DNA of 64,000 nucleotides from Escherichia coli (GCF_002854065.1 NZ_CP024147.1), one strand, 5' to 3'; positions 1,054 through 23,768 are shown, numbered from the stretch's first letter. Notes: generated from the letters alone by a model not told the origin. Numbers and translations are program-made.

Positions 1054-1054
1054 A

Positions 1055-1870: not shown

Positions 1871-1893
1871 TGATATGTAATTTCCCGCTTATT

Positions 1894-2095: not shown

Positions 2096-3496
2096 ATGAC
2101 CTCTACACCGATTACTACCGCTGATATCGCTAAAGGTAAAATTGACGATGCGTTATCTGTACGGGAAAAAATAGGCTACGGCCTGGGTGACGCAGGCGGC
2201 ACCGTAATAACTTGCCTGATCATGAATTTTCTCACCTTTTTCTACACCGACGTTTTTGGATTAACTCCGGCGCTGGTTGGCACGCTGTTTATTGCACTGC
2301 GCGTGTTTGATGCCATCTCCGACCCGGTGATGGGCGTCATTGCCGACCGGACGCAAAGTCGCTGGGGGCGCTTTCGTCCGTGGCAGCTATGGATTGCCAT
2401 TCCCATCGGCATTATCGGCATCCTGACGTTCACCGTGCCAGATGCCAGCATGGGAGTAAAAATCGCCTGGGCGTTCGGTACTTACCTGCTCCTTTCAGTC
2501 GGTTATACCGCCATCAACGTACCGTACTGCGCGCTGATCAACACCATGACCACCCGCCACAATGAAGTGATCTCCTGCCAGTCCTGGCGATTCGTTCTCT
2601 GTGGCGTAGCGGGATTTCTGGTTTCGGTAGGCTTACCGTGGATGGTAGATCTCTTCGGTCAGGGTAATGCCGCGCGCGGCTATCAATTGGGCGTCGGCGT
2701 GCTGTGCGCCATTGCCGTGGTGATGTTCCTGTGCTGTTTTTTCTGGGTTCGTGAACGGGTGCCACTCTCCACAATGGGGAAATTTACCCTGCGCGAACAT
2801 CTTGCCGGGCTGCGGAACAACGACCAACTGCTGCTGATGCTGGTCATGTCTTTCCTGCTGATTAACGTCTTTAACATTCGCGGCGGTGGGTATATGTACT
2901 TCATTACCTACGTCTTACAAGGCAGTACGGGCTACACGTCGCTGTTCTTCACCATGGTCACCTTCGCCTCCATTATCGGCTCGGTGATTGTCAGCCCGTT
3001 AACGCGGCGTTTCGATACCGTCAAAATTTACTACTACACCAACCTGCTCCTCGCTGCGCTGGCAGTGTTGATGTGGTTCCTGCCCTCCGGCCCGGCTTAT
3101 CAAACGCTGTGGCTGGCGGTGATCCTCGGTAATGGCGTAATTCTTGGCTTCACATTGCCACTGCACTTCTCATTGATGGCCTTTGCCGATGACTACGGCG
3201 AGTGGAAAACCCGCGTACGTTCTTCCGGCATGAACTTCGCCTTCAATCTGTTTTTCATCAAGCTGGCCTGGGCCTCCAGCGCCGGGATCATCAGCCTGCT
3301 GTTTATTTTTGTCGCCTACCAGCCTGGCGTGGAAAACCAGACCGCCAGTTCGCTTGGCGGGATCGCGGCGATGGAAACATTACTGCCTGCGCTATTCCAC
3401 CTGCTGCTGGCAGGGGCGATCCGCTTTTGCAAACTCAATCATCCTATGATGTCACGCATAGCTACCGACCTGCGTCAGCGTCATGTACAGCCTTAA
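2096..3496 (+). CDS. GPH-family (glycoside-pentoside-hexuronide:cation symporter) MFS sugar transporter
   Basis: 466-aa ORF, hydrophobic throughout; N-terminal GYGLGDAGG...[21 protein letters not shown] motif is typical of MelB/YicJ-type symporters. Confidence 0.85.
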
Positions 3497-3506
3497 GGAG
3501 CACAAG

Positions 3507-5477
3507 ATGAACATTTCGGAAGTCGATCTGCATAAACTGACGGTCAGCGATCCGTTCCTCGGTCAGTACCAACAACTGGTCCGCGACGTGGTGATTCCTT
3601 ATCAGTGGGATGCTTTGAACGATCGTATCCCAGAAGCGGAACCCAGCCATGCGATTGAAAACTTTCGCATTGCCGCCGGACTTCAGGAGGGTGAATTTTA
3701 CGGGATGGTGTTTCAGGACAGCGACGTCGCCAAATGGCTGGAAGCAGTAGCCTGGTCGCTGTGCCAGAAGCCGGACGCCGAACTGGAAAAAACCGCCGAC
3801 GAGGTGATTGAACTGGTCGCCTCCGCCCAGTGCGAAGACGGCTATCTCAATACTTACTTTACGGTAAAAGCACCCGAAGAACGCTGGAGCAATCTGGCGG
3901 AGTGTCATGAACTTTACTGCGCAGGTCATCTGATTGAAGCCGGAGTCGCCTTCTTCCAGGCCACGGGAAAACGGCGCTTGCTGGGGGTCGTTTGCCGCCT
4001 GGCCGATCATATCGACAGCGTATTTGGTCCAGATGAAAGTAAGTTACACGGTTATCCTGGTCACCCGGAAATTGAACTGGCACTAATGCGCCTGTATGAA
4101 GTGACTGAAGAGCCGCGCTACCTGGCGCTGACGAACTATTTTGTCGAACAGCGTGGTGCGCAACCGCACTATTACGACCAGGAATATGAAAAGCGCGGGC
4201 AGACATCGCACTGGCACACCTACGGCCCGGCATGGATGGTGAAAGACAAAGCCTACAGCCAGGCACATTTGCCCCTTGCGCAACAGCAAACCGCCATCGG
4301 TCACGCGGTACGTTTTGTCTATCTGATGACCGGCGTCGCGCATCTCGCGCGTTTAAGTCACGATGACAGCAAGCGTCAGGACTGCCTGCGGCTGTGGAAC
4401 AATATGGCCCAGCGTCAGTTATATATTACCGGCGGCATTGGCTCGCAAAGCAGCGGCGAAGCGTTCACTAGCGATTACGATCTGCCGAATGACACGGTAT
4501 ACGCTGAAAGTTGCGCCTCCATCGGCCTGATGATGTTTGCCCGACGAATGCTGGAAATGGAAGGCGACAGTCAATATGCCGATGTGATGGAGCGCGCACT
4601 GTACAACACCGTGCTCGGCGGCATGGCGCTGGATGGCAAACATTTCTTCTATGTGAATCCGCTGGAAGTACATCCAAAATCGCTGAAATTCAACCATATC
4701 TACGATCACGTTAAACCGATCCGCCAGCGTTGGTTTGGCTGCGCTTGTTGTCCGCCAAATATCGCCCGCGTGCTGACCTCGATTGGTCATTATCTCTACA
4801 CGCCGCGTGAAGATGCGTTGTATATCAACATATACGCAGGAAACAGCATGGAAGTGCCGGTAGAAAATGGCACGCTGCGCCTGCGGGTTAGCGGGAACTA
4901 TCCGTGGCAGGAGCAGGTGACGATTGCGGTTGAATCGCCCCAGCCGGTACGTCATACGCTGGCTTTACGTCTGCCGGACTGGTGCACACAGCCGCAGATC
5001 ATATTGAATGGGGAAGAGGTCGAGCAGGATATTCGTAAAGGGTATTTGCACATTACCCGCGAATGGCAGGAGGGCGATACGCTGAATCTGACTTTGCCGA
5101 TGCCGGTACGCCGCGTTTACGGTAACCCGCTGGTGCGTCACGTCGCCGGAAAAGTGGCGATTCAGCGCGGCCCGCTGGTGTATTGCCTGGAACAGGCCGA
5201 CAACGGCGAGTCACTGCATAATCTGTGGCTGCCCACCGATGCGCCATTTACGACATTTGAAGGCAAGGGATTGTTTAGCCATAAGATCTTAATCCAGGCA
5301 CCGGGTTACCGGTATGAACAGAGCAATCCAGAGCAGCAACCGCTGTGGCATTACGACAGCGCGCCAGCCAAACGCCAGACGCAAACTCTGACCTTTATCC
5401 CATGGTTTAGCTGGGCCAACCGGGGTGAAGGCGAAATGCGGATCTGGGTGAATGAGGAAAAGCATTGCCATCCGTAG
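3507..5477 (+). CDS. glycoside hydrolase family 127 (DUF1680, beta-L-arabinofuranosidase-like)
   Basis: Start set at ATG 3507, preceded by AAGGAG; 656 aa; Cys-rich WFGCACCPPN motif resembles the GH127 catalytic/zinc site; lies 10 bp after the transporter stop, so probably co-transcribed. Confidence 0.75.
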   Translation: MNISEVDLHKLTVSDPFLGQYQQLVRDVVIPYQWDALNDRIPEAEPSHAIENFRIAAGLQEGEFYGMVFQDSDVAKWLEAVAWSLCQKPDAELEKTADEVIELVASAQCEDGYLNTYFTVKAPEERWSNLAECHELYCAGHLIEAGVAFFQATGKRRLLGVVCRLADHIDSVFGPDESKLHGYPGHPEIELALMRLYEVTEEPRYLALTNYFVEQRGAQPHYYDQEYEKRGQTSHWHTYGPAWMVKDKAYSQAHLPLAQQQTAIGHAVRFVYLMTGVAHLARLSHDDSKRQDCLRLWNNMAQRQLYITGGIGSQSSGEAFTSDYDLPNDTVYAESCASIGLMMFARRMLEMEGDSQYADVMERALYNTVLGGMALDGKHFFYVNPLEVHPKSLKFNHIYDHVKPIRQRWFGCACCPPNIARVLTSIGHYLYTPREDALYINIYAGNSMEVPVENGTLRLRVSGNYPWQEQVTIAVESPQPVRHTLALRLPDWCTQPQIILNGEEVEQDIRKGYLHITREWQEGDTLNLTLPMPVRRVYGNPLVRHVAGKVAIQRGPLVYCLEQADNGESLHNLWLPTDAPFTTFEGKGLFSHKILIQAPGYRYEQSNPEQQPLWHYDSAPAKRQTQTLTFIPWFSWANRGEGEMRIWVNEEKHCHP

Positions 5478-5606: not shown

Positions 5607-6347
5607 TTAAAAACGCCAGCTCACGCCGGTGACAAAGGTAAAACTCTCATTACGATCAATCATCGGGCTGTCGGTAATCTCTTCCGGCAGCTCGCTGTAT
5701 CCGGCGCTCGCCATCAATACGACGTGCTCTCCTATCGGGTATTTTGCCGTCAGGCTGACATAGGGCACCCAGGCATCCTGCGCGGAATAACTTGCCAGAC
5801 CGCTACGACGGGACTCACTCTCTGAAATGCCATAGTAATAGTCACTGAAATTCTCGTCATAATAGAGAACGCCCAGCGCAGGTGTCAGCGACAGACGACC
5901 TATCTGCATTTTGTGGAATACCGATAGCTCCCCCACCCAGCCGTTGCTGTTATCCAGAACGTCCGCAGCTGCAGAGGCTTTCACGGTTCCCCAACGCTCG
6001 TGGTGATACCAGGCAACCCCCGCCATAGCCGTACTATCACGCTTATCAAGCTGTTGCATGGCATAATCGTCATTATCGGCAGGGTCAAATTCCAGCGGCA
6101 TCCAGGATGCGGTCAGGCTAAGTTCATTTTTTTCACTTTGCGACAGAATAAAACCTAACGTGGTCTGACGAACATAAAAAGAATCACCTTCATAACTAAT
6201 CAGGGGAATTGCCTTTGTATTTTCATTATAACCGCGATAAGGCGATTCATTATAAGCCGCACCAGCACCAATGGATAATTCAGAAGCAGTTGCGCTTGCC
6301 ATAAAAGGCAACGCAAATAACGCCACAATATTGCGGTTAATTAACAT
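5607..6347 (-). CDS. yiaT: MipA/OmpV-family outer membrane protein
   Basis: 246-aa ORF with signal peptide (MLINRNIVALFALPFMASATA) and C-terminal aromatic residue (…SWRF). Confidence 0.85.
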   Translation of the reverse strand: MLINRNIVALFALPFMASATASELSIGAGAAYNESPYRGYNENTKAIPLISYEGDSFYVRQTTLGFILSQSEKNELSLTASWMPLEFDPADNDDYAMQQLDKRDSTAMAGVAWYHHERWGTVKASAAADVLDNSNGWVGELSVFHKMQIGRLSLTPALGVLYYDENFSDYYYGISESESRRSGLASYSAQDAWVPYVSLTAKYPIGEHVVLMASAGYSELPEEITDSPMIDRNESFTFVTGVSWRF

Positions 6348-6470: not shown

Positions 6471-7445
6471 ATGACAAAATTACAACTTAAGTACCGGGAG
6501 TTAAAAATTATCTCGGTAATCGCTGCCAGTGAAAATATCAGCCATGCTGCGACTGTACTTGGCATCGCACAGGCCAACGTCAGCAAATACCTTGCTGATT
6601 TTGAATCAAAAGTGGGTTTAAAAGTCTTTGACCGAACCACCCGGCAGCTGATGCTCACACCTTTTGGTACCGCGCTGTTACCGTACATCAACGACATGCT
6701 GGACAGAAACGAGCAGCTTAATAATTTTATTGCAGATTATAAGCATGAGAAACGTGGTCGGGTCACCATCTACGCCCCAACCGGCATAATTACCTATTTA
6801 TCCAAACATGTAATCGATAAAATTAAAGATATCGGTGATATAACCTTATCGCTAAAAACCTGCAATCTTGAGCGTAATGCCTTTTATGAAGGCGTCGAAT
6901 TTCCTGATGATTGTGATGTTTTAATCAGCTACGCTCCACCAAAAGATGAATCGCTGGTTGCCAGTTTTATTACACAATATGCCGTAACCGCTTATGCCAG
7001 CCAGCGCTATCTTGAGAAACATCCTATTAGCCGTCCTGACGAACTCGAACATCACTCCTGTATTTTGATCGACTCGATGATGATCGACGACGCGAATATC
7101 TGGCGCTTCAACGTCGCCGGGAGTAAAGAGGTGCGGGATTATCGCGTGAAGGGAAATTACGTTTGCGACAACACGCAATCTGCGCTGGAGCTGGCACGAA
7201 ATCACCTGGGGATTGTGTTTGCGCCAGACAAAAGTGTGCAGAGAGATCTGCAAGACGGCACGCTGGTGCCCTGCTTTCAGCACCCGTATGAATGGTGGCT
7301 GGATCTGGTGGCTATCTTCCGTAAACGGGAATACCAGCCCTGGCGGGTCCAGTATGTGCTGGATGAAATGCTGCGTGAAATTCGCCACCAGCTTGCTCAG
7401 TCGCAGCAACTGCGGCCTGAACAAGCGGCGGAAAGCGAAGATTAA
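6471..7445 (+). CDS. yiaU: LysR-family transcriptional regulator
   Basis: 324-aa ORF; N-terminal HTH ([23 protein letters not shown]); divergent from yiaT. Confidence 0.85.
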
Positions 7446-8578
7446 TGATCGAGATAAAGGTAATGCACCCAGCTGGTCATGCGTAATAACACTTTGCGCA
7501 TCACCGAGACATGGCTGAAATGATCAGAGTAGACCGCCACCTGGGCGTAAATACCGTCTGGTAAAGCGCTCAAATCAGTGTGCTCATTCAGTTCAATGGT
7601 CGCGATAACGCCATCTGAACCCGGCGCTGTGTTTAACGTCTGTAAGGTGCCGGTCGACTGATAAGCTCCGCCGGGAACGGCTGGACTAATGGCTGCCAGC
7701 TTACCGCTGAATACCTTACCTGGCAGAGCATTAAACACCACTTCCGCATCGTCGCCAGGGGCCAGTCGCAGCAAGGAGTTCTGACGGAACTGCGCCACAA
7801 TTTGTCGTTTCTGATCGGGTATAAACACCATCACCGGACGTAGCGGCAGCGACGCGGCATAGGTACCCGGACGAATCAGTACCTGGGTCACATAACCATC
7901 GCTCGGCGCACGCACTATCGTCTGCTCAAGGTTATATTTTGCTTCCGCGAGCTGCGCTTTCAGGCTGGCGATTTGAGAATGTTCACCCAACACCAGGCTA
8001 TCCAGCTGGCTCTGGATCTGTTTTTGTTCCGCCGCCGATGACTTCACGGAGGCTTCCTGCGCCAGATAATTTTGCCGCGCCACATCGATATCGCGTTCTG
8101 AAAACGGGTTTACTTTCGCCTGGCTGCCGCGTGCGTAACGCTGATACTCTTTAGCGAATTTATCCCGCGTGGCCTTTGCCTGCTGAGTATTCGCCGCCAT
8201 CTCATCTAACTCTGCGCCCAACGCCCGCTGTTTATGTTCTGCGGTAACGATATCCGCCATCAGCCGATCCACCTGCGCCTGATAACGCGTCGGGTCCAGT
8301 CGAAATAGCACCTCACCTTTTTTAATTAGCGTATTTTTCTTGTCCGTCACTTCGATCACCACGCCTGTCACCTGCGGGACAACAGGAATAGAAATAACCG
8401 CTTTTTGCGCTTTAAAGGTATACGGATGGTTATAGTTCATTAACAGAATTAAACCGCTGACAATAAATATTCCACCCAGGGCCGCGGTGGGAATGGTCCA
8501 TTTATTTACAGGAATTTTGAAGATCTTAAACATTGCCCATGCGAAAGCCACATAGGTCAAAATAATCAGTAAATCCAT
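7442..8578 (-). CDS. yiaV: HlyD-family membrane fusion / periplasmic adaptor protein
   Basis: 378-aa ORF; N-terminal TM anchor then coiled-coil-rich region; about 75-80% identical by eye to the ORF at 17841-18977. Confidence 0.85.
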
Positions 8579-8583
8579 AAGTA

Positions 8584-8907
8584 TTACTCGGCAGAAGAGG
8601 ATTTGATGTCAGCGAGCTGTTTCTCCAGCCCAGCAATACGCTGTTGTAGTTGCACAACGGAGGAGTCATGGTTTTGCATTCCCCATCCCCGCTCCGGGCG
8701 GTAAAGCGTGGCCCAAATCCACAAAAATGGCCAGATAACATGCAGCGTAAAAAGACTCACCCAACCAGCAACATGAATGGCGTCGGCATGAGGATGATTA
8801 CGTTTTTTAGCAATCAGGTAGGGAATATCATGTAAAATAATAATCCCATAGAATATCACCAGAAATACAAAAATAAGCACTCCCAGTGCAAAATAGTCCA
8901 GGAACAT
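8584..8907 (-). CDS. yiaW: small inner-membrane protein (DUF3302)
   Basis: 107 aa from [17 protein letters not shown]...; 5 bp upstream of yiaV; paralogous to the ORF at 18980-19342. Confidence 0.8.
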
Positions 8908-9338
8908 ATTTCCCTCAGAGAATATAAAAAAGAACAATTAACACATATTATGAAATGCCATGATGCAGTGCAATTTCCTTATTTATATAACGACATATTA
9001 TTTTTTATATACTTTCTGAAGTGTGCTGCGTGGCTTTTCAACAGGTCGAGGTTTATCATATTGAAATAATGGAACTATTGGCCAAATTTATGATTAAAAA
9101 CCGTAAAACATCCACAATGCAGATTAAGCGTATTAAACCTTCAATAATCTACCGTTTATTGCTGATTGTCCTCGGAATACCAATGGTGATTTACGGTCTG
9201 GTTTGCCCGCTCACCATCGAAACGCGAGATTAAACTCCTGGCAAAACACACCCCAGAAACGCACTTTTGTTGGCGTAGTCTGGGTTATTGCACACGTAGG
9301 TTTAAAACGTAAATTGTAACAACGTGCGCTTTGTTTAT

Positions 9339-9420
9339 GCCGGATGCGGCGTGTACGCCTTATCCGGCCTACGGTCAGGTCCCCGTAGGCATGATAAGAC
9401 GCGTAAGCGTCGCATCAGGC
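9339..9420. repeat. REP extragenic palindromes
   Basis: gccggatgcggcgtgtacgccttatccggcctac ... gacgcgtaagcgtcgcatcaggc downstream of aldB. Confidence 0.65.
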
Positions 9421-9451
9421 AATTAATACCCGATGCGACCAGCTTCTTACA

Positions 9452-10990
9452 TCAGAACAGCCCCAACGGTTTATCTGAGTAGCTCACCAGCAGGCACTTG
9501 GTTTGCTGGTAATGCTCCAGCATCATCTTGTGGGTTTCGCGTCCAATGCCTGATTGTTTGTAGCCGCCAAACGCCGCATGTGCCGGGTAAGCGTGATAAC
9601 AGTTGGTCCACACGCGCCCGGCCTGAATGCCGCGCCCCATCTTATAGGCCAGATTACCGTTGCGGCTCCAGACGCCTGCGCCCAGGCCATATTGCGTATC
9701 GTTCGCCAGCTCCAGCGCTTCTTCCATCGTTTTGAAGGTGGTCACCGCCAGCACCGGGCCAAAAATCTCTTCCTGGAACACCCGCATATTGTTCTGACCA
9801 AACAGAATCGTCGGTTCAAGGTAGTAGCCGTCTTTCAGTTCGCCTTCCAGCAGCTTGCGCCGCCCGCCGGTGAGCACGTCTGCGCCCTCTTTTTTACCGA
9901 TATCAATGTAGTTGAGGATGGTTTCCAGTTGCCCGTGAGAAACCTGCGCACCCATTTGCGTCACGCTGTCGAGTGGGTTACCGCTGCGAATGCTTTCGAC
10001 ACGGCGGATGGCGCGTTCCATAAAGCGTTCGTAGATTGACTCCTGCACTAAGGCACGACTCGGACAGGTGCAAACTTCGCCCTGGTTAAAGGCAAACAGT
10101 GCAAAGCCTTCCAGCGCTTTATCGAAAAAGGCATCTTCTTCATCCATCACATCAGCAAAGAAGATATTTGGCGACTTACCGCCCAACTCCAGCGTCACCG
10201 GAATAATGTTTTGCGTTGCGTATTGCATAATTTGTTGGCCCACTTCCGTTGAGCCGGTAAACGCCACTTTGGCGATGCGTTTCGAGGTCGCCAGATATTC
10301 GCCAATTTCCCCACCTGCGCCATTGACCACGTTCACCACGCCCGGCGGCAGTAAATCACCGACAATTTCCATTAGCAGCAGTACAGAAAGCGGGGTAAGA
10401 CGTGCGGGTTTCAGCACCACACAGTTGCCCGCCGCCAGCGCGGGAGCCATTTTCCAGCTCGCCATCAGCAGCGGGAAGTTCCACGGGATAATCTGCCCCA
10501 CCACGCCTAACGGTTCATGGAAATGATAGGCCACGGTTTCGCTATCAACTTCACTGATCCCACCTTCCTGCGCCCGAATACACGAGGCGAAATAGCGGAA
10601 ATGGTCAATCGCCAGCGGTACATCCGCAGCACTGGTTTCGCGAATGGGTTTGCCGTTATCCCAGGTTTCAGCTGTCGCTAACAGCTCGAGGTTTTGTTCC
10701 ATTCGATCGGCAATCTTAAACAGAATCGCCGCGCGATCCTGCACCGAGGTGTGCGCCCATTTATCTTTCACTTTGTGCGCAGCATCCAGCGCCAGATCGA
10801 TGTCTCGTTTGCCCGAAGACGCCACTTCGCACAGCAGCTGCCCGGTCACCGGCGTCAGGTTCTGGTAATACTCACCATCGGCAGGGGCTACCCATTCGCC
10901 GCCAATAAAGTTGTCATAGCGGTTTTTTAACTTGAGGGGGAAACCATACTCGCCGGGCTTAATCTGTGCTGAAGGGGGATTATTGGTCAT
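9452..10990 (-). CDS. aldB: NADP-dependent aldehyde dehydrogenase B
   Basis: Start set at ATG 10990 ([17 protein letters not shown]...), giving 512 aa; aldehyde dehydrogenase motifs (ELGGKSP, VCTCPSR); the track ORF over-extends upstream. Confidence 0.9.
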
Positions 10991-11154
10991 GATCGTCTCC
11001 TTGCGGTGTGAGGTATAACAAGGGTAGACGTGACTGGCGAAATCTTCGCCAGTCGGTAACAGCTTTACGACAGCTATCACGAATTTACGGGCAAGGATTA
11101 CAGAGATAGTTGAAAAAGCGGCTGACAATTTGCCAGCCGTTGTTGGAATGATGA

Positions 11155-12167
11155 TTACATTGCGGCGCGATAAATCGCCACAATTTCTTCGTGAGTTGCC
11201 TGGATCGGGTTAGTAAAGCCACAGGCATCTTTCAGGGCATTAGTCGCCAGAACCGCGAAATCTTCTTCTTTCACGTTCAGGTCGCGTAGGCCTGCCGGGA
11301 TATCCACTTTCTTCGCCAGTTCACGGATGGCGTTAATGCAGGCTTCAGCACCTTCCGCGTCGTTTTTACCTGTCACGTTCACGCCCATTGCAGCGGCACA
11401 GTCACGCAGACGTGCAGCGGCGACTTTGCTGTTGAATACCTGAACATGCGGCAGCAGAACGGCGTTACATACACCGTGTGGCAGGTTGTAGAAACCGCCC
11501 AGCTGGTGCGCCATCGCATGAACATAACCCAGAGAAGCATTATTGAACGCCATACCGGCGAGGAACTGGGCATAAGCCATTGCTTCACGCGCTTTCGCAT
11601 TACTGCCATCTTCAACGGCTAACGGCAGGTTTTCGGCAATCATGGTCACGGCTTTCAGTGCACAAGCGTCAGTGATCGGCGTGGCGGCAATAGAAACATA
11701 CGCTTCGATAGCGTGCGTTAAGGCATCCATACCCGTTGCGGCGGTCAGTGACTTCGGCATACCAATCATCAGAGAGGAGTCATTGACAGAAAGCAGCGGA
11801 GTGACATGTTTATCAACAATCGCCATTTTGATATGACGCGCTTCGTCAGTGATGATGCAGAAACGGGTCATTTCAGAGGCCGTACCCGCCGTGGTATTGA
11901 TGGCGATCATCGGCAGCTGCGGTTTTGCAGAGCGGTCAACGCCTTCGTAATCGCGAATATCGCCGCCATTGGCTGCCACCAGCGCAATACCTTTTGCGCA
12001 GTCGTGCGGAGAACCACCGCCTAAGGAAATCACGCTATCGCAATTATTTTCTTTAAGTAATTTCAAACCTGCAGCGACGTTTTCCGTGGTGGGGTTAGGT
12101 TGGGTGCCATCATAAATAATGCTAAAAATATTGCGTTCTTCCAGTGCTTTTTGCACATCGCCCGCCA
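11155..12167 (-). pseudogene. yiaY: iron-containing alcohol dehydrogenase gene, 5'-truncated by IS1
   Basis: Fe-ADH frame (…[20 protein letters not shown]…) reads uninterrupted into the IS1 terminal repeat at 12168; about 45 N-terminal codons and the native promoter are absent. Confidence 0.8.
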
Positions 12168-12182
12168 GGTAATGACTCCAAC

Positions 12183-12686
12183 TTATTGATAGTGTTTTAT
12201 GTTCAGATAATGCCCGATGACTTTGTCATGCAGCTCCACCGATTTTGAGAACGACAGCGACTTCCGTCCCAGCCGTGCCAGGTGCTGCCTCAGATTCAGG
12301 TTATGCCGCTCAATTCGCTGCGTATATCGCTTGCTGATTACGTGCAGCTTTCCCTTCAGGCGGGATTCATACAGCGGCCAGCCATCCGTCATCCATATCA
12401 CCACGTCAAAGGGTGACAGCAGGCTCATAAGACGCCCCAGCGTCGCCATAGTGCGTTCACCGAATACGTGCGCAACAACCGTCTTCCGGAGACTGTCATA
12501 CGCGTAAAACAGCCAGCGCTGGCGCGATTTAGCCCCGACATAGCCCCACTGTTCGTCCATTTCCGCGCAGACGATGACGTCACTGCCCGGCTGTATGCGC
12601 GAGGTTACCGACTGCGGCCTGAGTTTTTTAAGTGACGTAAAATCGTGTTGAGGCCAACGCCCATAATGCGGGCAGTTGCCCGGCAT
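12183..12686 (-). CDS. insB: IS1 InsB (expressed as InsAB' by -1 frameshift)
   Basis: 167-aa [28 protein letters not shown]..., overlapping insA in the -1 frame. Confidence 0.95.
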
Positions 12687-12880
12687 CCAACGCCATTCAT
12701 GGCCATATCAATGATTTTCTGGTGCGTACCGGGTTGAGAAGCGGTGTAAGTGAACTGCAGTTGCCATGTTTTACGGCAGTGAGAGCAGAGATAGCGCTGA
12801 TGTCCGGCGGTGCTTTTGCCGTTACGCACCACCCCGTCAGTAGCTGAACAGGAGGGACAGCTGATAGAAACAGAAGCCAC
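12605..12880 (-). CDS. insA: IS1 InsA
   Basis: 91 aa, [43 protein letters not shown]... Confidence 0.95.
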
Positions 12881-12963
12881 TGGAGCACCTCAAAAACACC
12901 ATCATACACTAAATCAGTAAGTTGGCAGCATCACCTATTATTGTTTAGCAAAATTAATCTAAT

Positions 12964-13007
12964 AAAAAGCACATTGTATTCATTAAACAATGTGCTTTTT
13001 TTAAAAT
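12964..13007. terminator. perfect hairpin, probable bidirectional rho-independent terminator downstream of selB
   Basis: aaaagcacattgt-attcatta-acaatgtgcttttttt: 13-bp perfect stem with an A-tract on one side and T-tract on the other; sits in the 85-bp spacer between the two IS1 copies. Confidence 0.6.
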
Positions 13008-13035
13008 CATAAGAATTTTGGGTAATGACTCCAAC

Positions 13036-13539
13036 TTATTGATAGTGTTTTATGTTCAGATAATGCCCGATGACTTTGTCATGCAGCTCCACCGATTTTG
13101 AGAACGACAGCGACTTCCGTCCCAGCCGTGCCAGGTGCTGCCTCAGATTCAGGTTATGCCGCTCAATTCGCTGCGTATATCGCTTGCTGATTACGTGCAG
13201 CTTTCCCTTCAGGCGGGATTCATACAGCGGCCAGCCATCCGTCATCCATATCACCACGTCAAAGGGTGACAGCAGGCTCATAAGACGCCCCAGCGTCGCC
13301 ATAGTGCGTTCACCGAATACGTGCGCAACAACCGTCTTCCGGAGCCTGTCATACGCGTAAAACAGCCAGCGCTGGCGCGATTTAGCCCCGACGTATCCCC
13401 ACTGTTCGTCCATTTCCGCGCAGACGATGACGTCACTGCCCGGCTGTATGCGCGAGGTTACCGACTGCGGCCTGAGTTTTTTAAATGGCGGAAAATCGTG
13501 TTGAGGCCAACGCCCATAATGCGGGCGGTTGCCCGGCAT
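13036..13539 (-). CDS. insB: IS1 InsB (variant)
   Basis: 167 aa; [21 protein letters not shown]... vs copy 1 [21 protein letters not shown]...; YDRLRKT vs YDSLRKT. Confidence 0.9.
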
Positions 13540-13733
13540 CCAACGCCATTCATGGCCATATCAATGATTTTCTGGTGCGTACCGGGTTGAGAAGCGGTGT
13601 AAGTGAACTGCAGTTGCCATGTTTTACGGCAGTGAGAGCAGAGATAGCGCTGATGTCCGGCAGTGCTTTTGCCGTTACGCACCACCCCATCAGTAGCTGA
13701 ACAGGAGGGACAGCTGATAGAAACAGAAGCCAC
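13458..13733 (-). CDS. insA: IS1 InsA (variant)
   Basis: 91 aa; differs from copy 1 (…NTIFRHLKN… vs …NTILRHLKN…). Confidence 0.9.
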
Positions 13734-13831
13734 TGGAGCACCTCAAAAACACCATCATACACTAAATCAGTAAGTTGGCAGCATCACCGAATTTTGTATT
13801 AATTTATTTTAAAACTTAATTAATCATTTCC

Positions 13832-15676
13832 TTATTTTTCCGGAAATAATAATGCGTCGCGCAATAAATGATCATTTCCACGACGACGCGTAAAGCCAAT
13901 GCGGTCAAAATATTCCAGGATTTGAATCGCCAGTTTTCGCCCAACCCCTAAGCGATCGCGGAAATCCGCCGCGCAGGTTGAACCACATTCCTGATCGAGA
14001 TCGCGGATCATATTGGCAAACTCGACAATCCGATCGTTACGGTAATAACGATCTTTGACGATCGCGGTAATTATCCCCTGTTGGGCCGCCTGGCGTAGCG
14101 TCAGACGCATTGCCTGCTCGTCGGTTCCCGTCTCTTTTGCCAGGTCACGCACCCACCACGGTTCGTCACCAAACAGCGGCTCTGCTTTTTGCCAGATGGC
14201 CTGCTGCTCTTCGCTGAAGCCCGCTTTGTGATCCGGCAGATGCAGCCAACCGTGATGACTGAGGATGTCGCCGCTTTCGCGCATCTTTTCAATCAGCAAC
14301 AGTACCAGCGCTTCATCTTCCATTGGCAACGCCATACGTCGCAGACGTTCGCGCCCAGGACCAGGTTCATCGCGATGTTGCTCATGATAAGTCGCTAATG
14401 TGTCGAGAATTTTCCGCTGCCAGCGGGCGGCAACTGGCGCATTCAACAAGCTATAACCAGCCTGAATATAGCCCGGCTGTTGCAGTAGTTCGCGCATCCC
14501 TTCGCCGTTGAGCTGGCGTGCCCAGGCGAAATCCGCAAGGTTAACCGCTCCGCGTTCCAGATGAACAGATAACGCATCGGCATCGCTCTGCGCCCGTGCA
14601 AGAGACGCCAGCCATTGCAGATATTCCGGCTTACGTTTACCGCGACGCGGCGGGTTAAGCATCACCACACGTGCCCCCGCCAGCGTATTGCGGGCCGAGA
14701 TATCGCGCAACACTAAGCGATCGTTATCCGCCAGCCACAGCGGCGTGTCGAACACCAGCTCGGCAAGGTTATCTTCCAGCAGCGAAACGCGTCCCGTAAC
14801 GTGGCTGGCGGCGTGGTGAATATGCAGCGGCTGCCACTGGGTCAGCGGCGTATGGGTTTGAAGCTCGACAATCACCCGCGTGAACGGCTCTGGCGGCACA
14901 TCGGCAAGCAGCCAGTCGCCACGGTTAATCTGCTCTTTTTCCGCATCCCCCGCGATGTTAAGCGCGATACGCTGGCCGGCATGAGCGGTTTCTGTTGGCT
15001 GGTTTTGTGCATGCAGCGCACGTACACGCATCGGTTTATTTACACCAGTCAGCCATAGTGAATCGCCTACCGTCACTTCCCCGCTTAACGCCGTACCGGT
15101 GACGACCAGCCCGGCACCTTTTACGGTAAATGCGCGGTCGATCGCGAGGCGGAAACTATGTTGGCTGGCGTGTTCACGTTCTGGTAACTGAAGCAGATGC
15201 TCGCGCAGGGCATCAATTCCCCGACCCTCGGTTGCTGCGGTGATAAACAGTTTTGCCTCAGCAAAACCGTATTCCCGCAGCACCTCCTTTACCTGGCGTT
15301 CAACCTCATTAACACGCGCTTCGTCCACGCGATCGGCTTTGGTCAGCGCCACTGTCAGCATCGGGTTACCGGTCAGCTGCAAAATCGCCAGATGCTCACG
15401 GGTCTGTGCCATCACACCGTCATCGCACGCCACCACCAACAGCGCGTGATCGATACCACCAACGCCCGCCAGCATGTTGGAAAGAAACTTTTCATGACCG
15501 GGTACGTCGATAAAACCAGGCACGCGACCATCCGGCTGCGGCCAGTAGGCATAGCCGAGATCGATGGTCATGCCGCGCTTTTTTTCTTCCGGCAGACGAT
15601 CGGCATTTACGCCAGTAATCGCCTGCAATAAGGTTGTTTTGCCGTGGTCAACGTGTCCGGCAGTCGCAATAATCAT
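13832..15676 (-). CDS. selB: selenocysteine-specific translation elongation factor
   Basis: 614-aa ORF; N-terminal GTPase motifs ([24 protein letters not shown]). Confidence 0.95.
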
Positions 15677-17064
15677 TTCAACAACATCTCCAAAAACCGT
15701 TGCTCATCTTCAAGGCAGCGTAAATCCAGCCACAATCGTCCGTCATAAATACGACCAATCACCGGCACTGGCAATTCACGCCAGCGGGCGGCTAATGACT
15801 CAAGGTGGCTACCGCGTCCATCATGGGGTGTAAACGTTAATGCCGCGCTCGGCAGGCGATCAACCGGCAGCGAACCACTGCCAATCTGCGAAAGACATGG
15901 CATAACCTGTACCGCAAACTCCGCGCCGTAATGTGCGGCAAGGGGAGCCTGTAAACGTTGTGCCTGGATTTGAATGACCTCTGCGCTGCGGGTAAGCAGG
16001 CGCAGGGTCGGTAATTTTTCACTCAGAGCTTCAGGGTGTAAATAAAGACGCAACGTGGCTTCCAACGCCGCGAGGGTCATTTTATCCGCGCGTAATGCAC
16101 GCTTCAGCGGGTGGCTTTGCAGGCGGGCGATCATCTCTTTTTTACCAACAATAATTCCTGCCTGCGGCCCGCCTAACAACTTGTCGCCGGAGAAGCTCAC
16201 CAGACTGACGCCCGCCGCAATCAACTCCTGCGGCATTGGCTCTTTCGGCAAACCGTACTGGCTAAGATCGACCAGCGAGCCACTGCCTAAATCAGTCACT
16301 ACGGGAACATCCAGCTCTTTGCCGAGCGCCACCAGTTCAGCTTCGTCTATCGCTTTGGTGAACCCCTGAATGCTGTAGTTACTGGTATGTACTTTCATCA
16401 ACAGTGCGGTATTTTCATTCACCGCCTGACGATAATCATTCGCGTGCGTGCGGTTGGTGGTCCCTACTTCGTGTAGGGTGCAGCCTGCCTGACGCATAAC
16501 ATCGGGAATACGAAACGCGCCGCCAATCTCCACCAGTTCGCCGCGAGATACCACTACCTCTTTCCCGCTGGCAATGGCCGCCAACATCAATAACACCGCC
16601 GCCGCATTGTTATTAACGATACAGGCATCTTCCGCCCCCGTAATACGGCACAGCAACTGCGCCAGCGCACGATCGCGATGTCCGCGTCCGGCGTCGTCCA
16701 GATCGTACTCGAGGGTCACTGGCGAACGCATAGCCTGCGCAACGGCTTCCACCGCGGCTTCCGCCTGTAAAGCTCGCCCAAGGTTGGTATGCAGCACGGT
16801 TCCCGTCAGGTTGATCACCGGACGCAGCGCACTCTGCGCCTCTTTCGTCAACCGGGCATCGACTTCTTGCGCCCAGTTTTCACACCACGCAGGCAGCGTC
16901 TGGCTGCCACGAATCACTTCTCGCGCTTCGTCGAGCATCTGACGCAACAATTCCACCACGCGGGTGTGACCATAAGTATCACGCAAAGAAAGGAAGGAGC
17001 TATCGCGCAATAAGCGATCAATAGCCGGAAGTTGACTATAGAGGGAACGCGTTTCGGTTGTCAT
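15673..17064 (-). CDS. selA: L-seryl-tRNA(Sec) selenium transferase
   Basis: 463-aa ORF; PLP-enzyme signature ([13 protein letters not shown]); 4-bp overlap with selB start. Confidence 0.95.
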
Positions 17065-17161
17065 AGGAAACCTGGCTGATCAAGGCCCTCTCACACGGAG
17101 AAGAGCGTTTAACATAACCACGGATTGTAACGTGAGATGGGTCAGGAGGACATATCGCGCA

Positions 17162-17770
17162 TCAAGCCTTTGGCGGTTCGGTGCGAGCAAAACTTTCGCG
17201 GCTAAACAGGTTTTCGACCAGTTTGACTAAGTGTGGGCGGTCGACACACCAACCTGGCGCAACGCGGCGGAAATTGAGATATCCGACGGCACAGGCAATA
17301 GCGATAGTCGCCAGATTGACCGTATCGGTTTTGAGTGTGCCATCGACCAGATATCCTTCCAGCACATCCAGACTGCGGTTGATTTTCTCCCGCTGGCGTA
17401 ACAATTCATCTTCAGACTGCTGCGCCGCTGGACGCGCCTGTTCACGCACCGATACCAGCCCGGCATCCATAATGCCATCCGCCAGTGCCTCAATTTTGCG
17501 CACCCGCAACGACTCCAGCGGATCGCGCGGCAACATCGCCGGAGCGACATTCATTAATTCAATATATTCAGCGATGATCGGCGAATCAAACCAGCATTCG
17601 CCCTCTTCGGTCACCAGCACCGGCACTTTTCCTAACGGGTTAAATTGCGCCACGCCGTTGTCCGCGTTATAGGGCAGTTCATTAATAAATTCGAAAGTTA
17701 TGCCCTTTTCTAACAACAGAATAGAAAGTTTGCGTACAAACGGGCTGGTGTAGCTACCGACGAGTTTCAT
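17162..17770 (-). CDS. yibF: glutathione S-transferase-like protein
   Basis: 202-aa [31 protein letters not shown]..., GST N-terminal thioredoxin-like fold. Confidence 0.9.
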
Positions 17771-17840
17771 GCCGAGTCCTTTGTGCGAGGAAAAATATCA
17801 GTATGGCTCAGGCTCACGCAAAACACAGGTGATATAAGTC

Positions 17841-18977
17841 TCAATGATCCAAATAAAGATAATGCATCCAGCTGGTCATTCTTAGCAGCACTTTTCGCAT
17901 CACCGAAACATGGCTGAAATGGTCGGAGTAAACTGCCACCTGGGCGTAAATGCCGTCGGGTAAGGCATCGATATCATCGTTAGGGTCCAGTTCAATGGTT
18001 CCCAGCACACCGTCCGTGCCGGGCACGACCGTTAATGATTGCAATACCCCCTGCGCCTGATAAGAACCGCCTGGCACGACAGGTAAAATACTGGTCAGTT
18101 TGCCGTGGAACACCTGCCCAGGTAGCGCGTTAAACACCACTTCCGCATCATCGCCAGGTTTCAGACGTAACAGCGAGTTTTGCCGAAATTGGGCGACAAT
18201 TTGCCGTTTTTGCTCGGGGATGAAAACCATCACCGGACGCAACGGCAAGGCAGCTGCGTATGTGCCTGGGCGGATCAGTACCTGAGTGACGTAGCCATTG
18301 CTTGGTGCGCGAATGACGGTCTGTTCAAGGTTATATTTTGCTTCTGTAAGTTGCGCTCTTAAGCTCACAATCTGCGATTGCTCGCCGTTGACCATACTGT
18401 CGAGCTGACTCTGGATCTGCGCCTGCTCCGCCACCGAGCCTTTCACTAACGCATCCTGCGCGAGGAAATTTTGCCGCGCATCGTCGATGTCACGTTCCGA
18501 GAACGGATTCACCGCCGCCTGGCTGCCTTTCAGATAACGTTGATAATTTTTAAACAGACGGTCGCGCTCCGCTGAAACCTGGGTGGTGTTGGCCTGCGCT
18601 TCAGTGAGCTGCGCGCGCAGCGTCTTTATATTATGCGTCGCCGTCATCAGGTCAGCCTGAAGTCTGTCAACTCGCGCCTGGTAACGAACCGGGTCGAGCT
18701 TAAAAAGCACCTCGCCCTTTTGAATAAGCTGATTATTCTTGTCAGTGACTTCAGTAACAATTCCCGTCACCTGTGGCGTGATGGGGATCGCTATCACTGC
18801 CTTTTGCGCGGTAAAAGTGTAAGGGTGGTTGTAGTTCATCAACAAAATCAAACCACTCACCAGAAACACGCCTCCCAGCGCCGCCGTCGCCAGCGTCCAC
18901 TGATTCACCGGAATGCGGAAGATTTTAAAGACCGCCCACGCCAACGCCACGTAAGTTAAAACAATCAATAGATCCAT
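17841..18977 (-). CDS. yibH: HlyD-family membrane fusion / periplasmic adaptor protein (paralog of yiaV)
   Basis: 378-aa ORF colinear with yiaV ([27 protein letters not shown]..., shared C-terminus ...[19 protein letters not shown]). Confidence 0.85.
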
Positions 18978-18979
18978 AA

Positions 18980-19342
18980 TTAGATCTCCGGGAACGTGGA
19001 ATAGTCAGTCTTTTTCTCGGCGGCGAGTTGGTGCTCCAGCCGGGAAATTCGGTCAGAAAGTGCGGCGATTTCCGGGTCAGTCGCTTTCTCCTGCGACGCA
19101 ACATGTGACTGCATACCCCAGCCACGCTCCGGTTGATAGAGCGTCGCCCAGATCCACAGAAACGGCCAGATAACATGCAGAGTAAACAGGCTCACCCAGC
19201 CCGCCGTATGAATAGCGTCGGCATGGGGATGGTTGCGCTTTTTGGCAATCAGATAAGGGATGTCATGTATCGCGATGATTCCATAAAAAATCACCAGAAA
19301 GACGAAGATCAGCACTCCCAACGCGAAATAGTTTAGAAACAT
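18980..19342 (-). CDS. yibI: small inner-membrane protein DUF3302 (paralog of yiaW)
   Basis: 120-aa [26 protein letters not shown]...; 2 bp upstream of yibH. Confidence 0.85.
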
Positions 19343-19558
19343 ATTTGCCTCGGATTCACGTTTATCAGTGTTGTTTTTTGGCTGGCAGCCAGAAGGGAGT
19401 CAGGCTGATATTTTGACAATAATCCGGGTTCGCGATTCTCGCCATAACACCAAAGAATAATTTTTAGAGGTGATGAGTTGCTTAGTTACATAACGATTGT
19501 ATGACGAAGGCATAACATGCTGTAGATCACATCAGGTGAACGCCGTAAGAAAATATCT

Positions 19559-19735
19559 TGTGATTCAGATCACAAAGATTCAACAAACCATCAAAACAAA
19601 AATGTGACATTAGTCACATTTAAATGCCATTTTTAGCGAAAATCGCCGCCTTGTTGCTTTTTTACACAAGCGTTTTGTGATGAACATCACGTCAATTACC
19701 TCTCTACCCCCTATATTTATGTGATTGATATCACA
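19559..19735. promoter_or_regulatory. mtlA promoter region with an array of CRP-type palindromes
   Basis: TGTGATTCAGATCACA (19559-19574), TGTGACATTAGTCACA (19603-19618), TGTGATGAACATCACG (19676-19691), TGTGATTGATATCACA (19720-19735), all TGTGA-N6-TCACA. Confidence 0.65.
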
Positions 19736-19878
19736 CAAAAGGCCGTCGACTGGACAGTTAACCGATTCAGTGCCAGATTTCGCAGTATCTACAAGGTCCG
19801 GCTACCTCTGCCGCCACATTAACAAAAAACCTCGGGCTTCCAGCCTGCGCGACAGCAAACATAAGAAGGGGTGTTTTT

Positions 19879-21792
19879 ATGTCATCCGATATTAAGATCA
19901 AAGTGCAAAGCTTTGGTCGTTTCCTCAGCAACATGGTGATGCCAAATATCGGCGCGTTTATCGCGTGGGGTATCATCACCGCGTTATTTATTCCAACAGG
20001 GTGGTTACCGAACGAGACGCTGGCGAAGCTGGTCGGGCCGATGATCACTTATCTCCTGCCGCTGCTGATCGGTTATACCGGTGGTAAGCTGGTAGGCGGC
20101 GAACGTGGCGGCGTAGTCGGTGCCATCACCACCATGGGCGTTATCGTCGGCGCAGACATGCCGATGTTCCTCGGTTCTATGATTGCAGGTCCGCTGGGCG
20201 GCTGGTGCATTAAGCACTTCGACCGCTGGGTAGACGGTAAGATCAAATCCGGTTTTGAGATGCTGGTGAATAACTTCTCCGCAGGCATCATCGGGATGAT
20301 CCTCGCCATTCTGGCATTTCTCGGCATTGGCCCGATTGTTGAAGCCCTGTCCAAAATGCTGGCTGCGGGCGTTAACTTCATGGTTGTCCATGACATGCTG
20401 CCGCTGGCGTCTATCTTTGTTGAACCGGCGAAAATCCTGTTCCTCAACAACGCCATTAACCACGGTATCTTCTCGCCGCTGGGTATTCAGCAGTCCCATG
20501 AACTGGGTAAATCCATATTCTTCCTGATTGAAGCTAACCCAGGTCCGGGTATGGGCGTGCTGCTGGCGTACATGTTCTTTGGTCGTGGTAGCGCTAAACA
20601 GTCTGCGGGCGGTGCGGCAATTATCCACTTCCTGGGTGGTATCCACGAAATTTACTTCCCGTATGTGTTGATGAATCCGCGTCTGATCCTGGCCGTTATC
20701 CTCGGCGGTATGACTGGCGTGTTCACGCTGACTATCCTGGGCGGTGGTCTGGTTTCTCCGGCATCTCCGGGTTCTATCCTTGCTGTACTGGCGATGACAC
20801 CAAAAGGTGCTTATTTCGCTAACATCGCGGGTGTGTGTGCGGCGATGGCTGTCTCCTTTGTTGTCTCTGCTATTTTGCTGAAAACCAGCAAAGTGAAAGA
20901 AGAAGATGATATTGAAGCAGCAACTCGTCGTATGCAGGACATGAAAGCTGAGTCTAAAGGTGCATCTCCGCTGTCTGCGGGCGATGTGACTAACGACCTG
21001 AGCCACGTACGTAAAATCATCGTTGCCTGTGACGCCGGTATGGGTTCAAGTGCGATGGGCGCAGGCGTGCTGCGTAAGAAAATTCAGGATGCAGGTCTGT
21101 CGCAGATTTCGGTCACTAACAGTGCGATCAACAACCTGCCGCCAGATGTGGACCTCGTCATCACTCACCGTGACCTGACCGAACGCGCTATGCGCCAGGT
21201 TCCGCAGGCACAGCATATTTCGCTGACCAACTTCCTCGACAGCGGCCTGTACACCAGCCTGACCGAACGTCTGGTTGCTGCCCAGCGCCATACTGAAAAC
21301 GAAGTGAAAGTGAAAGACAGTCTGAAAGACAGCTTTGACGATTCCAGTGCTAACCTGTTCAAACTGGGCGCGGAGAACATCTTCCTCGGTCGCAAAGCGG
21401 CCACCAAAGAAGAAGCGATTCGTTTTGCTGGCGAGCAGCTGGTGAAAGGCGGTTACGTTGAGCCGGAATACGTTCAGGCGATGCTGGATCGTGAAAAACT
21501 GACCCCGACTTATCTGGGTGAGTCTATCGCGGTGCCACACGGTACGGTTGAAGCGAAAGATCGCGTACTGAAAACGGGCGTGGTGTTCTGCCAGTACCCG
21601 GAAGGCGTGCGCTTCGGTGAAGAAGAAGATGACATTGCCCGTCTGGTGATTGGTATTGCTGCCCGTAACAACGAGCACATTCAGGTTATCACCAGCCTGA
21701 CCAATGCACTGGATGATGAGTCCGTCATCGAGCGTCTGGCACACACCACCAGCGTGGATGAAGTGCTGGAACTGCTGGCAGGTCATAAGTAA
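19879..21792 (+). CDS. mtlA: PTS mannitol-specific EIICBA component
   Basis: 637-aa [34 protein letters not shown]..., membrane EIIC followed by EIIB and EIIA domains. Confidence 0.95.
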
Positions 21793-21796
21793 TCCA

Positions 21797-21995
<199 letters not shown>

Positions 21996-22021
21996 TAAAA
22001 ACATTGATGAAGGTTAATACT

Positions 22022-23170
22022 ATGAAAGCATTACATTTTGGCGCAGGTAATATCGGTCGTGGCTTTATCGGTAAACTGCTGGCAGACGCGGGTATACAAC
22101 TGACGTTTGCCGATGTCAATCAGGTGGTACTTGATGCCCTGAATGCCCGTCATAGCTATCAGGTTCATGTGGTAGGTGAAACCGAGCAGGTAGATACCGT
22201 TTCCGGCGTCAATGCTGTCAGCAGCATTGGTGATGATGTCGTTGATCTCATTGCTCAGGTTGATTTAGTCACTACCGCCGTTGGCCCGGTAGTGCTGGAA
22301 CGTATTGCTCCGGCTATCGCCAAAGGGCTGGTGAAACGTAAAGAACAAGGTAATGAATCTCCGCTGAACATCATCGCTTGTGAAAACATGGTCCGCGGCA
22401 CCACGCAACTGAAAGGCCATGTGATGAACGCCCTGCCGGAAGACGCCAAAGCGTGGGTAGAAGAACACGTTGGCTTTGTCGATTCCGCCGTTGACCGCAT
22501 CGTACCGCCTTCGGCTTCGGCAACTAACGATCCGCTGGAAGTGACGGTAGAAACCTTCAGCGAATGGATTGTCGATAAAACTCAGTTCAAAGGCGCACTG
22601 CCGAACATCCCAGGCATGGAGTTAACCGACAACCTGATGGCATTTGTCGAACGTAAACTCTTCACCCTGAACACGGGTCATGCTATAACCGCGTACCTCG
22701 GAAAACTGGCCGGTCATCAGACCATTCGTGACGCTATTCTCGACGAGAAAATCCGCGCGGTGGTAAAAGGTGCGATGGAAGAAAGTGGCGCGGTACTGAT
22801 CAAGCGTTACGGCTTTGACGCTGACAAGCATGCGGCGTACATCCAGAAAATCCTCGGTCGTTTTGAGAACCCGTATCTGAAAGATGATGTAGAGCGCGTA
22901 GGCCGTCAGCCGCTGCGTAAACTGAGCGCAGGCGACCGTCTGATCAAGCCACTGCTCGGTACGCTGGAATACGGCCTCCCGTACAAAAATCTGATTCAGG
23001 GAATTGCCGCTGCAATGCACTTCCGCAGTGAAGATGATCCACAGGCTCAGGAACTGGCAGCACTGATCGCCGACAAAGGTCCGCAGGCGTCGCTGGCACA
23101 GATTTCCGGGCTTGATGCCAACAGCGAGGTTGTATCTGAGGCGGTAACCGCTTATAAAGCAATGCAATAA
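22022..23170 (+). CDS. mtlD: mannitol-1-phosphate 5-dehydrogenase
   Basis: Start set at ATG 22022 ([20 protein letters not shown]-binding motif), giving 382 aa; the track ORF over-extends upstream through the palindromes. Confidence 0.95.
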
Positions 23171-23757: not shown

Positions 23758-23768
23758 GCAACGTCTGC

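Follow-up and report, generated by a model that had tools for sequence, protein, structure and literature searches.

A 64,000-nucleotide (nt) stretch of Escherichia coli DNA (GCF_002854065.1, NZ_CP024147.1; termed the window) carries two paralogous modules, yiaW-yiaV and yibI-yibH. Each consists of a gene for a small DUF3302 membrane protein followed by a gene for a periplasmic adaptor of the HlyD type. Comparison of approximately 200 loci shows that the DUF3302 gene and the adaptor gene are an evolutionarily conserved core unit. The adaptor has the fold of EmrA, no classical pump gene is found in the same operon, and outside the Enterobacterales some of the pairs are joined by a gene for a TolC-family channel or for a cation/proton antiporter. 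The tentatively preferred reading is that the modules form TolC-dependent conduits without a pump, in which DUF3302 would be the fixed inner-membrane partner. The E. coli genes have long been annotated; what is new is the comparative picture, i.e. a putative pump-less variant of the tripartite systems that is linked to outer-membrane channel and antiporter genes. In the inventory of E. coli efflux systems only YiaV and YibH are left as “orphan” adaptors, and the two modules consist entirely of genes from the uncharacterised y-ome.

The two modules

The genes of the modules are as follows, with names taken from the annotation of strain K-12.

yiaV: positions 7442–8578, minus strand; 378 amino acid (aa) EmrA-like periplasmic adaptor (membrane fusion protein) with a double transmembrane (TM) N-terminus and a C-terminal amphipathic helix (basis: open reading frame, Pfam, K-12 annotation).
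yiaW: positions 8584–8907, minus strand; 107 aa DUF3302 protein with two TM helices and a helical tail (Pfam, K-12 annotation).
yibH: positions 17841–18977, minus strand; 378 aa paralogue of yiaV (open reading frame, Pfam, AlphaFold model, Foldseek).
yibI: positions 18980–19342, minus strand; 120 aa DUF3302 protein, paralogue of yiaW (Pfam, AlphaFold secondary structure).

The original prediction placed two paralogous modules on the minus strand, with adaptors equal in length and about 75%–80% identical and with small genes encoding 107 and 120 aa located 2–5 bp from the adaptor gene. The open reading frames are found exactly there. BLASTP aligns YiaV and YibH without gaps over 378 aa, with 290 of 378 residues identical (77%). 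YiaW and YibI share 84 of 113 residues (74%, E-value = 8e-62) and their divergence lies mostly in the C-terminal tail. The spacing between the stop codon of the small gene and the start of the adaptor gene is 5 nt in yiaW-yiaV and 2 nt in yibI-yibH. The length of YiaW is counted from an ATG; in a mechanical list of open reading frames it extends to a TTG at position 8937 (117 aa).

It was also predicted that no ABC, RND or MFS pump gene and no outer-membrane channel gene adjoins the modules, and this is borne out by a phmmer scan of the whole window. When all open reading frames were searched for homologues of TolC-type channels and pumps, using TolC/MdtP, AaeB/YdhK/MdtO, EmrB, AcrB, MacB and the antiporter proteins described below as queries, only the four module genes were recovered. 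Thus the absence of a cognate transporter or channel holds for the entire 64 kb. The closest outer-membrane gene is yiaT, but its product belongs to the MipA family and is no TolC-type channel; the tolC gene of E. coli is located elsewhere, outside the window. A consensus scan for promoters and terminators at positions 7000–20000 found promoter-like sites no more often than chance would give, and nothing of note close to the modules. The four proteins gave zero matches to the PADLOC models of anti-phage defence.

Conservation and duplication of the pair

In 71 of 75 reference-genome loci the DUF3302 gene is followed within 2–10 nt by the gene for a 378 aa adaptor, and the four exceptions are at contig ends. 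A second sample consists of 126 non-enteric loci: 120 metagenome loci collected by means of a DNA pattern for a 13-residue protein motif, together with distant members added individually. Here the adaptor gene follows the DUF3302 gene directly in 111 loci; almost all of the remaining 15 lie at the end of a contig.

The pairwise distances of the DUF3302 genes and of the adaptor genes are correlated (r = 0.89), and at yiaWV-type loci both genes are nearer to YiaW/YiaV than to YibI/YibH. This indicates that the module was duplicated as a whole, and the two modules are paralogous as had been proposed. Synonymous sites between the paralogues are saturated (pS 0.73–0.76) and dN/dS is 0.07 or less in all comparisons, which points to an old duplication and to purifying selection on all four genes. 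Orthologues across the Enterobacterales are 75%–93% identical.

Of 5426 complete E. coli genomes, 5406 (99.6%) have the yibIH module and 3800 have yiaWV. In most of the sampled Enterobacteriaceae loci the gene order around yibIH is mtlA-[yibI yibH]-yibF-selA-selB; among the sampled loci yiaWV is located between aldB and yiaU solely in Escherichia, Citrobacter and Pseudocitrobacter.

Several variations on this distribution were seen. In at least one genome (H8) yiaV is interrupted by an IS5-like insertion sequence (IS). Serratia has a third, more divergent DUF3302-adaptor paralogue (loci L066, L069 and L073), 59%–60% identical to YibH, with a DUF3313 lipoprotein gene and a divergently oriented LysR gene ahead of it. 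Lipoprotein genes of the DUF3313 or DUF4136 type recur beside the pair in other genera also (L062, L071; L207; L078). A pair with 80% identity to YibH is carried by the megaplasmid pSOD02 of Pantoea sp. SOD02 (927 kb, L061), where it adjoins a LysR gene and a DUF1471 gene.

Classification and predicted structure of the adaptor

Both adaptors pass the Pfam cut-offs for CusB_dom_1 (57 bits, cut-off 26.5) and HlyD_D23 (42–45 bits, cut-off 30). The domains of the HlyD/membrane fusion protein superfamily, i.e. lipoyl domain, α-hairpin, β-barrel and membrane anchor, are found by Pfam, AlphaFold and Foldseek. Genes for membrane fusion proteins usually adjoin the gene of their inner-membrane transporter. 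With YiaV and YibH, however, no transporter is encoded next door in the window, and none is co-operonic in 71 related genome loci. Matches to the NCBIfam models of individual adaptors are partial and below threshold: EmrA/EmrK (TIGR00998) 113 bits against a cut-off of 390.8, MdtN (NF007785) 111–113 bits against 376, and AaeA (NF007850) 62–75 bits against 400. The nearest solved relative of YiaV/YibH by sequence is EmrA. In a phylogenetic tree the DUF3302-linked adaptors form a separate clade, sister to AaeA/YdhJ/MdtN.

An AlphaFold2 model of YibH, made from a 31-sequence alignment, has a mean pLDDT of 84.5. Its helices are TM1 (positions 2–19), TM2 (26–50), the two arms of the hairpin (97–152 and 161–218, the first being 56 residues long) and a C-terminal helix (355–374); the lipoyl halves and the β-barrel are present also. 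The top Foldseek matches are EmrA chains from the cryo-electron microscopy structures of EmrAB-TolC (8zal and 8zar, E-value = 2e-19), and YibH superposes on EmrA with a TM-score of 0.64–0.70 over 308–336 columns. MacA and AcrA are also among the matches. In an alignment with EmrA, MdtN and AaeA among its members, Arg147 at the tip of the hairpin hardly varies.

All DUF3302-linked adaptors have a second N-terminal TM helix, a motif (F-K-x-F-K-x-P-V-N-K-W ... L-L-M-N-Y-N-H-P-Y) and a C-terminal helix (R-K-x-L-L-R-M-x-S-W). By alignment, the second TM helix, the motif and the C-terminal helix are absent from AaeA, YdhJ, MdtN and EmrA of E. coli. Among 75 adaptors conservation is 0.63–0.80 in the TM hairpin, loop and C-terminal helix, 0.53–0.67 in the periplasmic core and lowest (0.34) in the α-hairpin. 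The membrane segments are as conserved as the periplasmic core or more so, which is unusual for a simple anchor and argues for specific contacts of these segments within the membrane.

The DUF3302 protein

YiaW and YibI match DUF3302 (PF11742) over the full length of the model with 147 and 140 bits respectively (cut-off 32). The family comprises 819 clusters at 50% identity. Its members have two TM helices and a near-invariant loop (H-D-I-P-Y followed by 14 further residues). Trp and Pro are abundant in TM2; the tail differs in sequence between members yet is always helical. Invariant residues are P29, A33, H38, P39, A43, W49, S51, W59, P60 and W65. The AlphaFold helices of YibI (2–26, 28–35 and 41–67, then a disordered linker and 90–111) fit the predicted N-terminal TM hairpin with a helical tail. 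By the positive-inside rule the loop would face the cytoplasm and the tail the periplasm.

A fused monomer, YibI-(GGGGS)6-YibH, was modelled with AlphaFold2 from a paired 23-sequence alignment. It has a mean pLDDT of 72.4, with YibI at 43–74, and displays no confident interface signal.

Two possible relationships of DUF3302 were rejected. It does not appear to be a diverged AaeX/DUF1656 protein, as hhalign gives a probability of 1.1% and none of 22 members matched DUF1656 at an E-value of 10 or less. A search of PDB sequences with the DUF3302 profile yielded marginal matches to rhodopsin TM segments (E-value ~1e-3), which were attributed to hydrophobic composition.

Genes linked to the pair in other bacteria

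No RND, ABC, MFS or FUSC gene is co-operonic with the pair in any of the ~200 loci; the ABC and RND matches near pairs are 1.5–9 kb distant or on the opposite strand. The missing pump noted for E. coli is a trait of the whole family and not peculiar to this species. In the Enterobacterales no recurrent transporter gene was found beside the pair; the recurrent neighbours there are genes for LysR regulators, a DUF3313 lipoprotein, DUF1471 (BhsA-like) proteins and the MipA-family yiaT. In several genera a LysR gene is a repeated neighbour of the DUF3302-adaptor pair.

Outside the Enterobacterales, two types of gene are linked to the pair. The first encodes a TolC-family outer-membrane channel protein (OEP) and abuts the pair in 24 of the 126 loci, which represent several adaptor clades. 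It is located directly upstream, with gaps of 3–12 nt (L080–L086) or of 113–336 nt (in a clade of 437 aa adaptors), or directly downstream with gaps of 11–22 nt. The second, present in 20 of the 126 loci, encodes a protein of ~405 aa that matches PF00999 (Na_H_Exchanger), i.e. an NhaP-like cation/proton antiporter (CPA). Among the NCBIfam models it comes nearest to the NhaP2-type K+/H+ antiporter, with a score far under the cut-off, and source databases name it “NhaP-type”. The CPA gene is found in at least four arrangements relative to the pair:

DUF3302-adaptor-OEP-CPA, with 0–37 nt between OEP and CPA (L088, L149, L159, L166, L177, L215).
CPA-DUF3302-adaptor, with gaps of 45–99 nt (L103, L145, L152, L164, L169, L206).
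DUF3302-adaptor-CPA (L112, L113, L187).
Convergent CPA (L100, L148, L175, L188).

The CPA-linked pairs span three adaptor clades, which include both long-hairpin adaptors (376–378 aa, E. coli-like) and short-hairpin ones (315–321 aa). Collapsing the DUF3302 sequences at 90% identity leaves 86 clusters; an OEP gene is found in 19 of them and a CPA gene in 13. The linked antiporters are 32%–98% identical to one another (median 43%) and 22%–30% identical to CvrA and YjcE of E. coli.

The short-hairpin adaptor clades carry their own OEP gene and the E. coli-like long-hairpin clades are without one, as would be expected if long-hairpin adaptors use a TolC encoded elsewhere. One contig of a metagenome-assembled genome (L088) displays a FUSC-OEP-DUF1656-AaeA-like adaptor operon (positions 1–4851) and, 2 kb apart, a DUF3302-adaptor-OEP-NhaP-like operon (positions 7001–10933). 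This shows that the two types of system coexist and are distinct.

Other genes were also seen near the pair. In one lineage (L131, L088, L089, L215 and ~6 more) a gene for a DUF2092 (LolA-like periplasmic) protein is divergently upstream of DUF3302 in 10 loci, and a Gly/Arg/Pro-rich gene of ~290 aa (weak DUF6515 match) has the same position in 8 loci of this group. In two distant relatives (JGI contig V0QMxy3M, and L083 at positions 3292–3801) the pair is closely followed by glyoxalase-family genes. Together with the glutathione-transferase-like yibF these few cases may hint at a theme of electrophile detoxification.

Published data on the genes

A literature search yielded no defined function or partner for yiaV, yiaW, yibH or yibI, only incidental matches in screens, and DUF3302 appears there in gene tables only. 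Both modules are expressed. Human urine induces yibI and yibH in uropathogenic E. coli, and deleting yibI lowers adhesion to bladder cells and gives a competitive index of 0.33 in urine (PMC5404293). Expression of yiaW and yibH in O157:H7 rises at entry into stationary phase (PMC2241611), and yiaV is mildly induced in a mixed biofilm (PMC3646849). The yibH knockout is among ornidazole-sensitive strains (PMC9405208). In Klebsiella pneumoniae, deletion of yibH results in fewer plaques from evolved phages (PMC11796411). YiaV is listed as TCDB 8.A.1.1.4, uncharacterised (PMC10971958). The LysR protein YiaU was considered as a regulator of yiaWV, but a ChIP-exo/RNA-seq paper lists yiaT, waa and adeP as its targets and not yiaV or yiaW.

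Proposed mechanism and alternatives

In the proposed mechanism, the two-TM DUF3302 protein and the EmrA-like adaptor would make up a fixed inner-membrane pair in each module. The adaptor, which also has the C-terminal amphipathic helix, would be anchored by its own conserved TM hairpin, and by analogy with EmrA it may oligomerise (as a hexamer) into a periplasmic tube. Its long α-hairpins would dock onto a TolC-family channel; for E. coli this would be TolC acting in trans, as for AcrAB, EmrAB and MacAB. The outcome would be an envelope-spanning conduit without a classical RND, ABC, MFS or FUSC pump, with an inner-membrane end built from DUF3302 and the TM helices of the adaptor. In some lineages an NhaP-like cation/proton antiporter may join and supply proton-motive coupling. 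The substrate transported is possibly a cation or a small solute.

It had been proposed that the pair could be self-contained. A conserved DUF3302-adaptor core without a classical pump agrees with this, but the presence of the outer-membrane channel gene and/or the CPA1 gene in the same operon in other phyla does not. These operons, together with the superposition of YibH on TolC-docked EmrA with equal hairpin length, make it most likely that the pair depends on other components acting in trans, at the least a channel in the outer membrane.

Several points weigh against a TolC-dependent conduit. Neither E. coli locus has a channel or transporter gene, and the use of TolC is therefore an extrapolation; the distance of the linked antiporters from CvrA and YjcE means that E. 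coli may lack a CPA partner as well. Among the 24 non-enteric loci with at least 1.5 kb of sequence on both sides, 14 consist of the core only; an OEP gene is present in 8 and a CPA gene in 2. No experiment ties YiaV, YibH, YiaW or YibI to TolC or to any substrate. To our knowledge a two-TM protein is unprecedented as the inner-membrane component of a tripartite system. In the fused model, a crude test with a linker-joined monomer, confidence in the TM helices of YibH was lowered. In addition, yibH has been employed as a neutral integration site (PMC5852967).

The main alternative is that YiaV and YibH are orphan adaptors for a pump encoded elsewhere, with DUF3302 as an accessory or modulator in the manner of AcrZ for AcrB. 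Candidate pumps are of the FUSC/PET type (AaeB, YdhK, MdtO, YccS, YhfK), the MFS protein EmrB, or antiporters (CvrA, YjcE, a Kef protein). The sister clades AaeA, YdhJ and MdtN use FUSC-type pumps and likewise have a small membrane-protein gene upstream, the top partial NCBIfam matches are MdtN, EmrA and AaeA, and a CPA gene is present in cis in 20 relatives. However, FUSC, MFS, RND or ABC genes are always co-operonic with the sister adaptors and never so with the DUF3302-linked ones, and in L088 the FUSC operon is separate from the DUF3302-adaptor-OEP-CPA operon. The strongly conserved TM hairpin speaks for a dedicated membrane partner, for which DUF3302 is the sole universal candidate, and the linked antiporters are only remotely related to CvrA and YjcE. 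A pump in trans is thus possible but doubtful, having been weakened by the family-wide lack of pump genes in cis.

An unlikely possibility is that the pair forms a self-contained inner-membrane/periplasmic complex that needs neither channel nor transporter and serves a purpose unrelated to efflux, such as tethering, the sensing of envelope stress or the remodelling of membranes. It would account for the majority of loci being core-only, for the envelope-related neighbours in the Enterobacterales (LysR, DUF3313, DUF1471/BhsA-like and MipA-family YiaT) and for the surface-related phenotypes, i.e. phage plaques on the K. pneumoniae yibH deletion (PMC11796411) and bladder-cell adhesion of the yibI deletion (PMC5404293). 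It does not account for the OEP genes that abut the pair in 24 loci of several adaptor clades, nor for a fold and hairpin length that match a TolC-docking adaptor; moreover, the short-hairpin clades consistently have their own OEP gene, as is expected if docking matters. Finally, the modules could be redundant, decaying remnants of a former efflux operon that are now functionless. The lack of a strong laboratory phenotype, the use of yibH as a neutral insertion site and the absence of yiaWV from ~30% of complete E. coli genomes are in line with decay. Yet four reading frames are intact with dN/dS of 0.07 or less despite saturated synonymous sites, orthologues are 75%–93% identical across the Enterobacterales, yibIH is present in 99.6% of E. 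coli genomes, expression is regulated, and the yibI deletion has a fitness defect in urine. Decay is disfavoured and very improbable.

Returning to the TolC-dependent conduit, the comparative data convert an “adaptor without pump” into a testable model, in which the CPA antiporter is the sole transporter type ever linked to the pair. If true, there would be more inner-membrane engines able to drive transport across both membranes. A role could then be assigned to DUF3302 with its 819 clusters, and urine, stationary phase and cation or pH stress are suggested as conditions for phenotyping. A wider proposal, which is rather doubtful, is that there exists a further tripartite class beside RND, ABC, MFS and FUSC, in which a TolC-family channel is combined with a CPA1 antiporter or a DUF3302/adaptor TM bundle as the energy-coupling part. 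In E. coli there would be two copies that depend on TolC, and what they export in urine or in stationary phase might be a cation or small solute.

Other features of the window

The genes around and between the modules are:

yiaT: positions 5607–6347; MipA-family outer-membrane protein, beside yiaU/yiaV.
yiaU: positions 6471–7445, plus strand; LysR-type regulator, convergent with yiaV with a 4-nt overlap (context only).
Block between the modules, outside both: positions 8938–17161; aldB, 5′-truncated yiaY, two IS1 copies, selB and selA.
yibF: positions 17162–17770, minus strand; glutathione-transferase-like gene, 70 nt downstream of yibH (context only).

A 10-kb block between the modules had been predicted. 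Such a block exists, although its size here is 8.9 kb; it holds aldB, the truncated yiaY, two IS1 copies, selB, selA and yibF. In K-12 the corresponding stretch is ~16 kb because of the rhsA island (rhsA, yibA, yibJ, yibG and others; ~8.3 kb, K-12 locus L001 positions 21956–30244), which is absent at positions 17770–17841 of the window. Thus yibF is 70 nt from yibH, as in most Enterobacteriaceae, and the two are split by the island in K-12.

Two identical IS1 copies are located 853 nt apart (starts at 12168 and 13021) between yiaY and selB, in the stretch 11155–13831. This stretch is matched over 80% or more in only 7 complete E. coli genomes. The yiaY open reading frame has 333 aa compared with 383 aa in K-12, and its 5′ end was apparently lost through insertion or rearrangement. 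A 1737 aa open reading frame on the plus strand (positions 25898–31111) is downstream of the mtl genes; the K-12 mtlR-lldP interval has no open reading frame as large as this.

Comparison with known systems

The transporter linked to DUF3302 resembles the NhaP-type CPA1 antiporters (CvrA/NhaP2 and YjcE) in matching PF00999 and the K+/H+ antiporter family. Unlike CvrA and YjcE, it is ~405 aa long and without a C-terminal regulatory domain. A combination of CPA antiporter, adaptor and TolC as one system was not found in the literature searched, and we know of no CPA antiporter described as part of an adaptor/outer-membrane channel system.

AcrZ (with AcrB) and YtcA (upstream of mdtNOP) are also small membrane proteins encoded with an efflux-type assembly. 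They accompany a real pump, whereas DUF3302 occurs without a pump gene and is far more conserved.

Operons of the PET/FUSC type (AaeXAB, YdhIJK, FusABCDE) have a similar layout, with a gene for a small two-TM protein first and the adaptor gene directly next; AaeXAB also has an adjoining LysR regulator (aaeR). In contrast to these, the DUF3302 modules are without a FUSC pump gene, and DUF3302 has no recognisable homology to DUF1656 (AaeX/YdhI/FusD). YiaV and YibH differ from AaeA, YdhJ and MdtN in having two N-terminal TM helices and a conserved C-terminal helix.

EmrA, the adaptor of EmrAB-TolC, is the top match in sequence as well as in structure. YibH shares with EmrA the long α-hairpin, the lipoyl and β-barrel domains and an inner-membrane helix anchor instead of a lipid anchor. 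Unlike EmrA, it is without an MFS partner; its obligatory partner is DUF3302, and it carries one more TM helix as well as a C-terminal helix.

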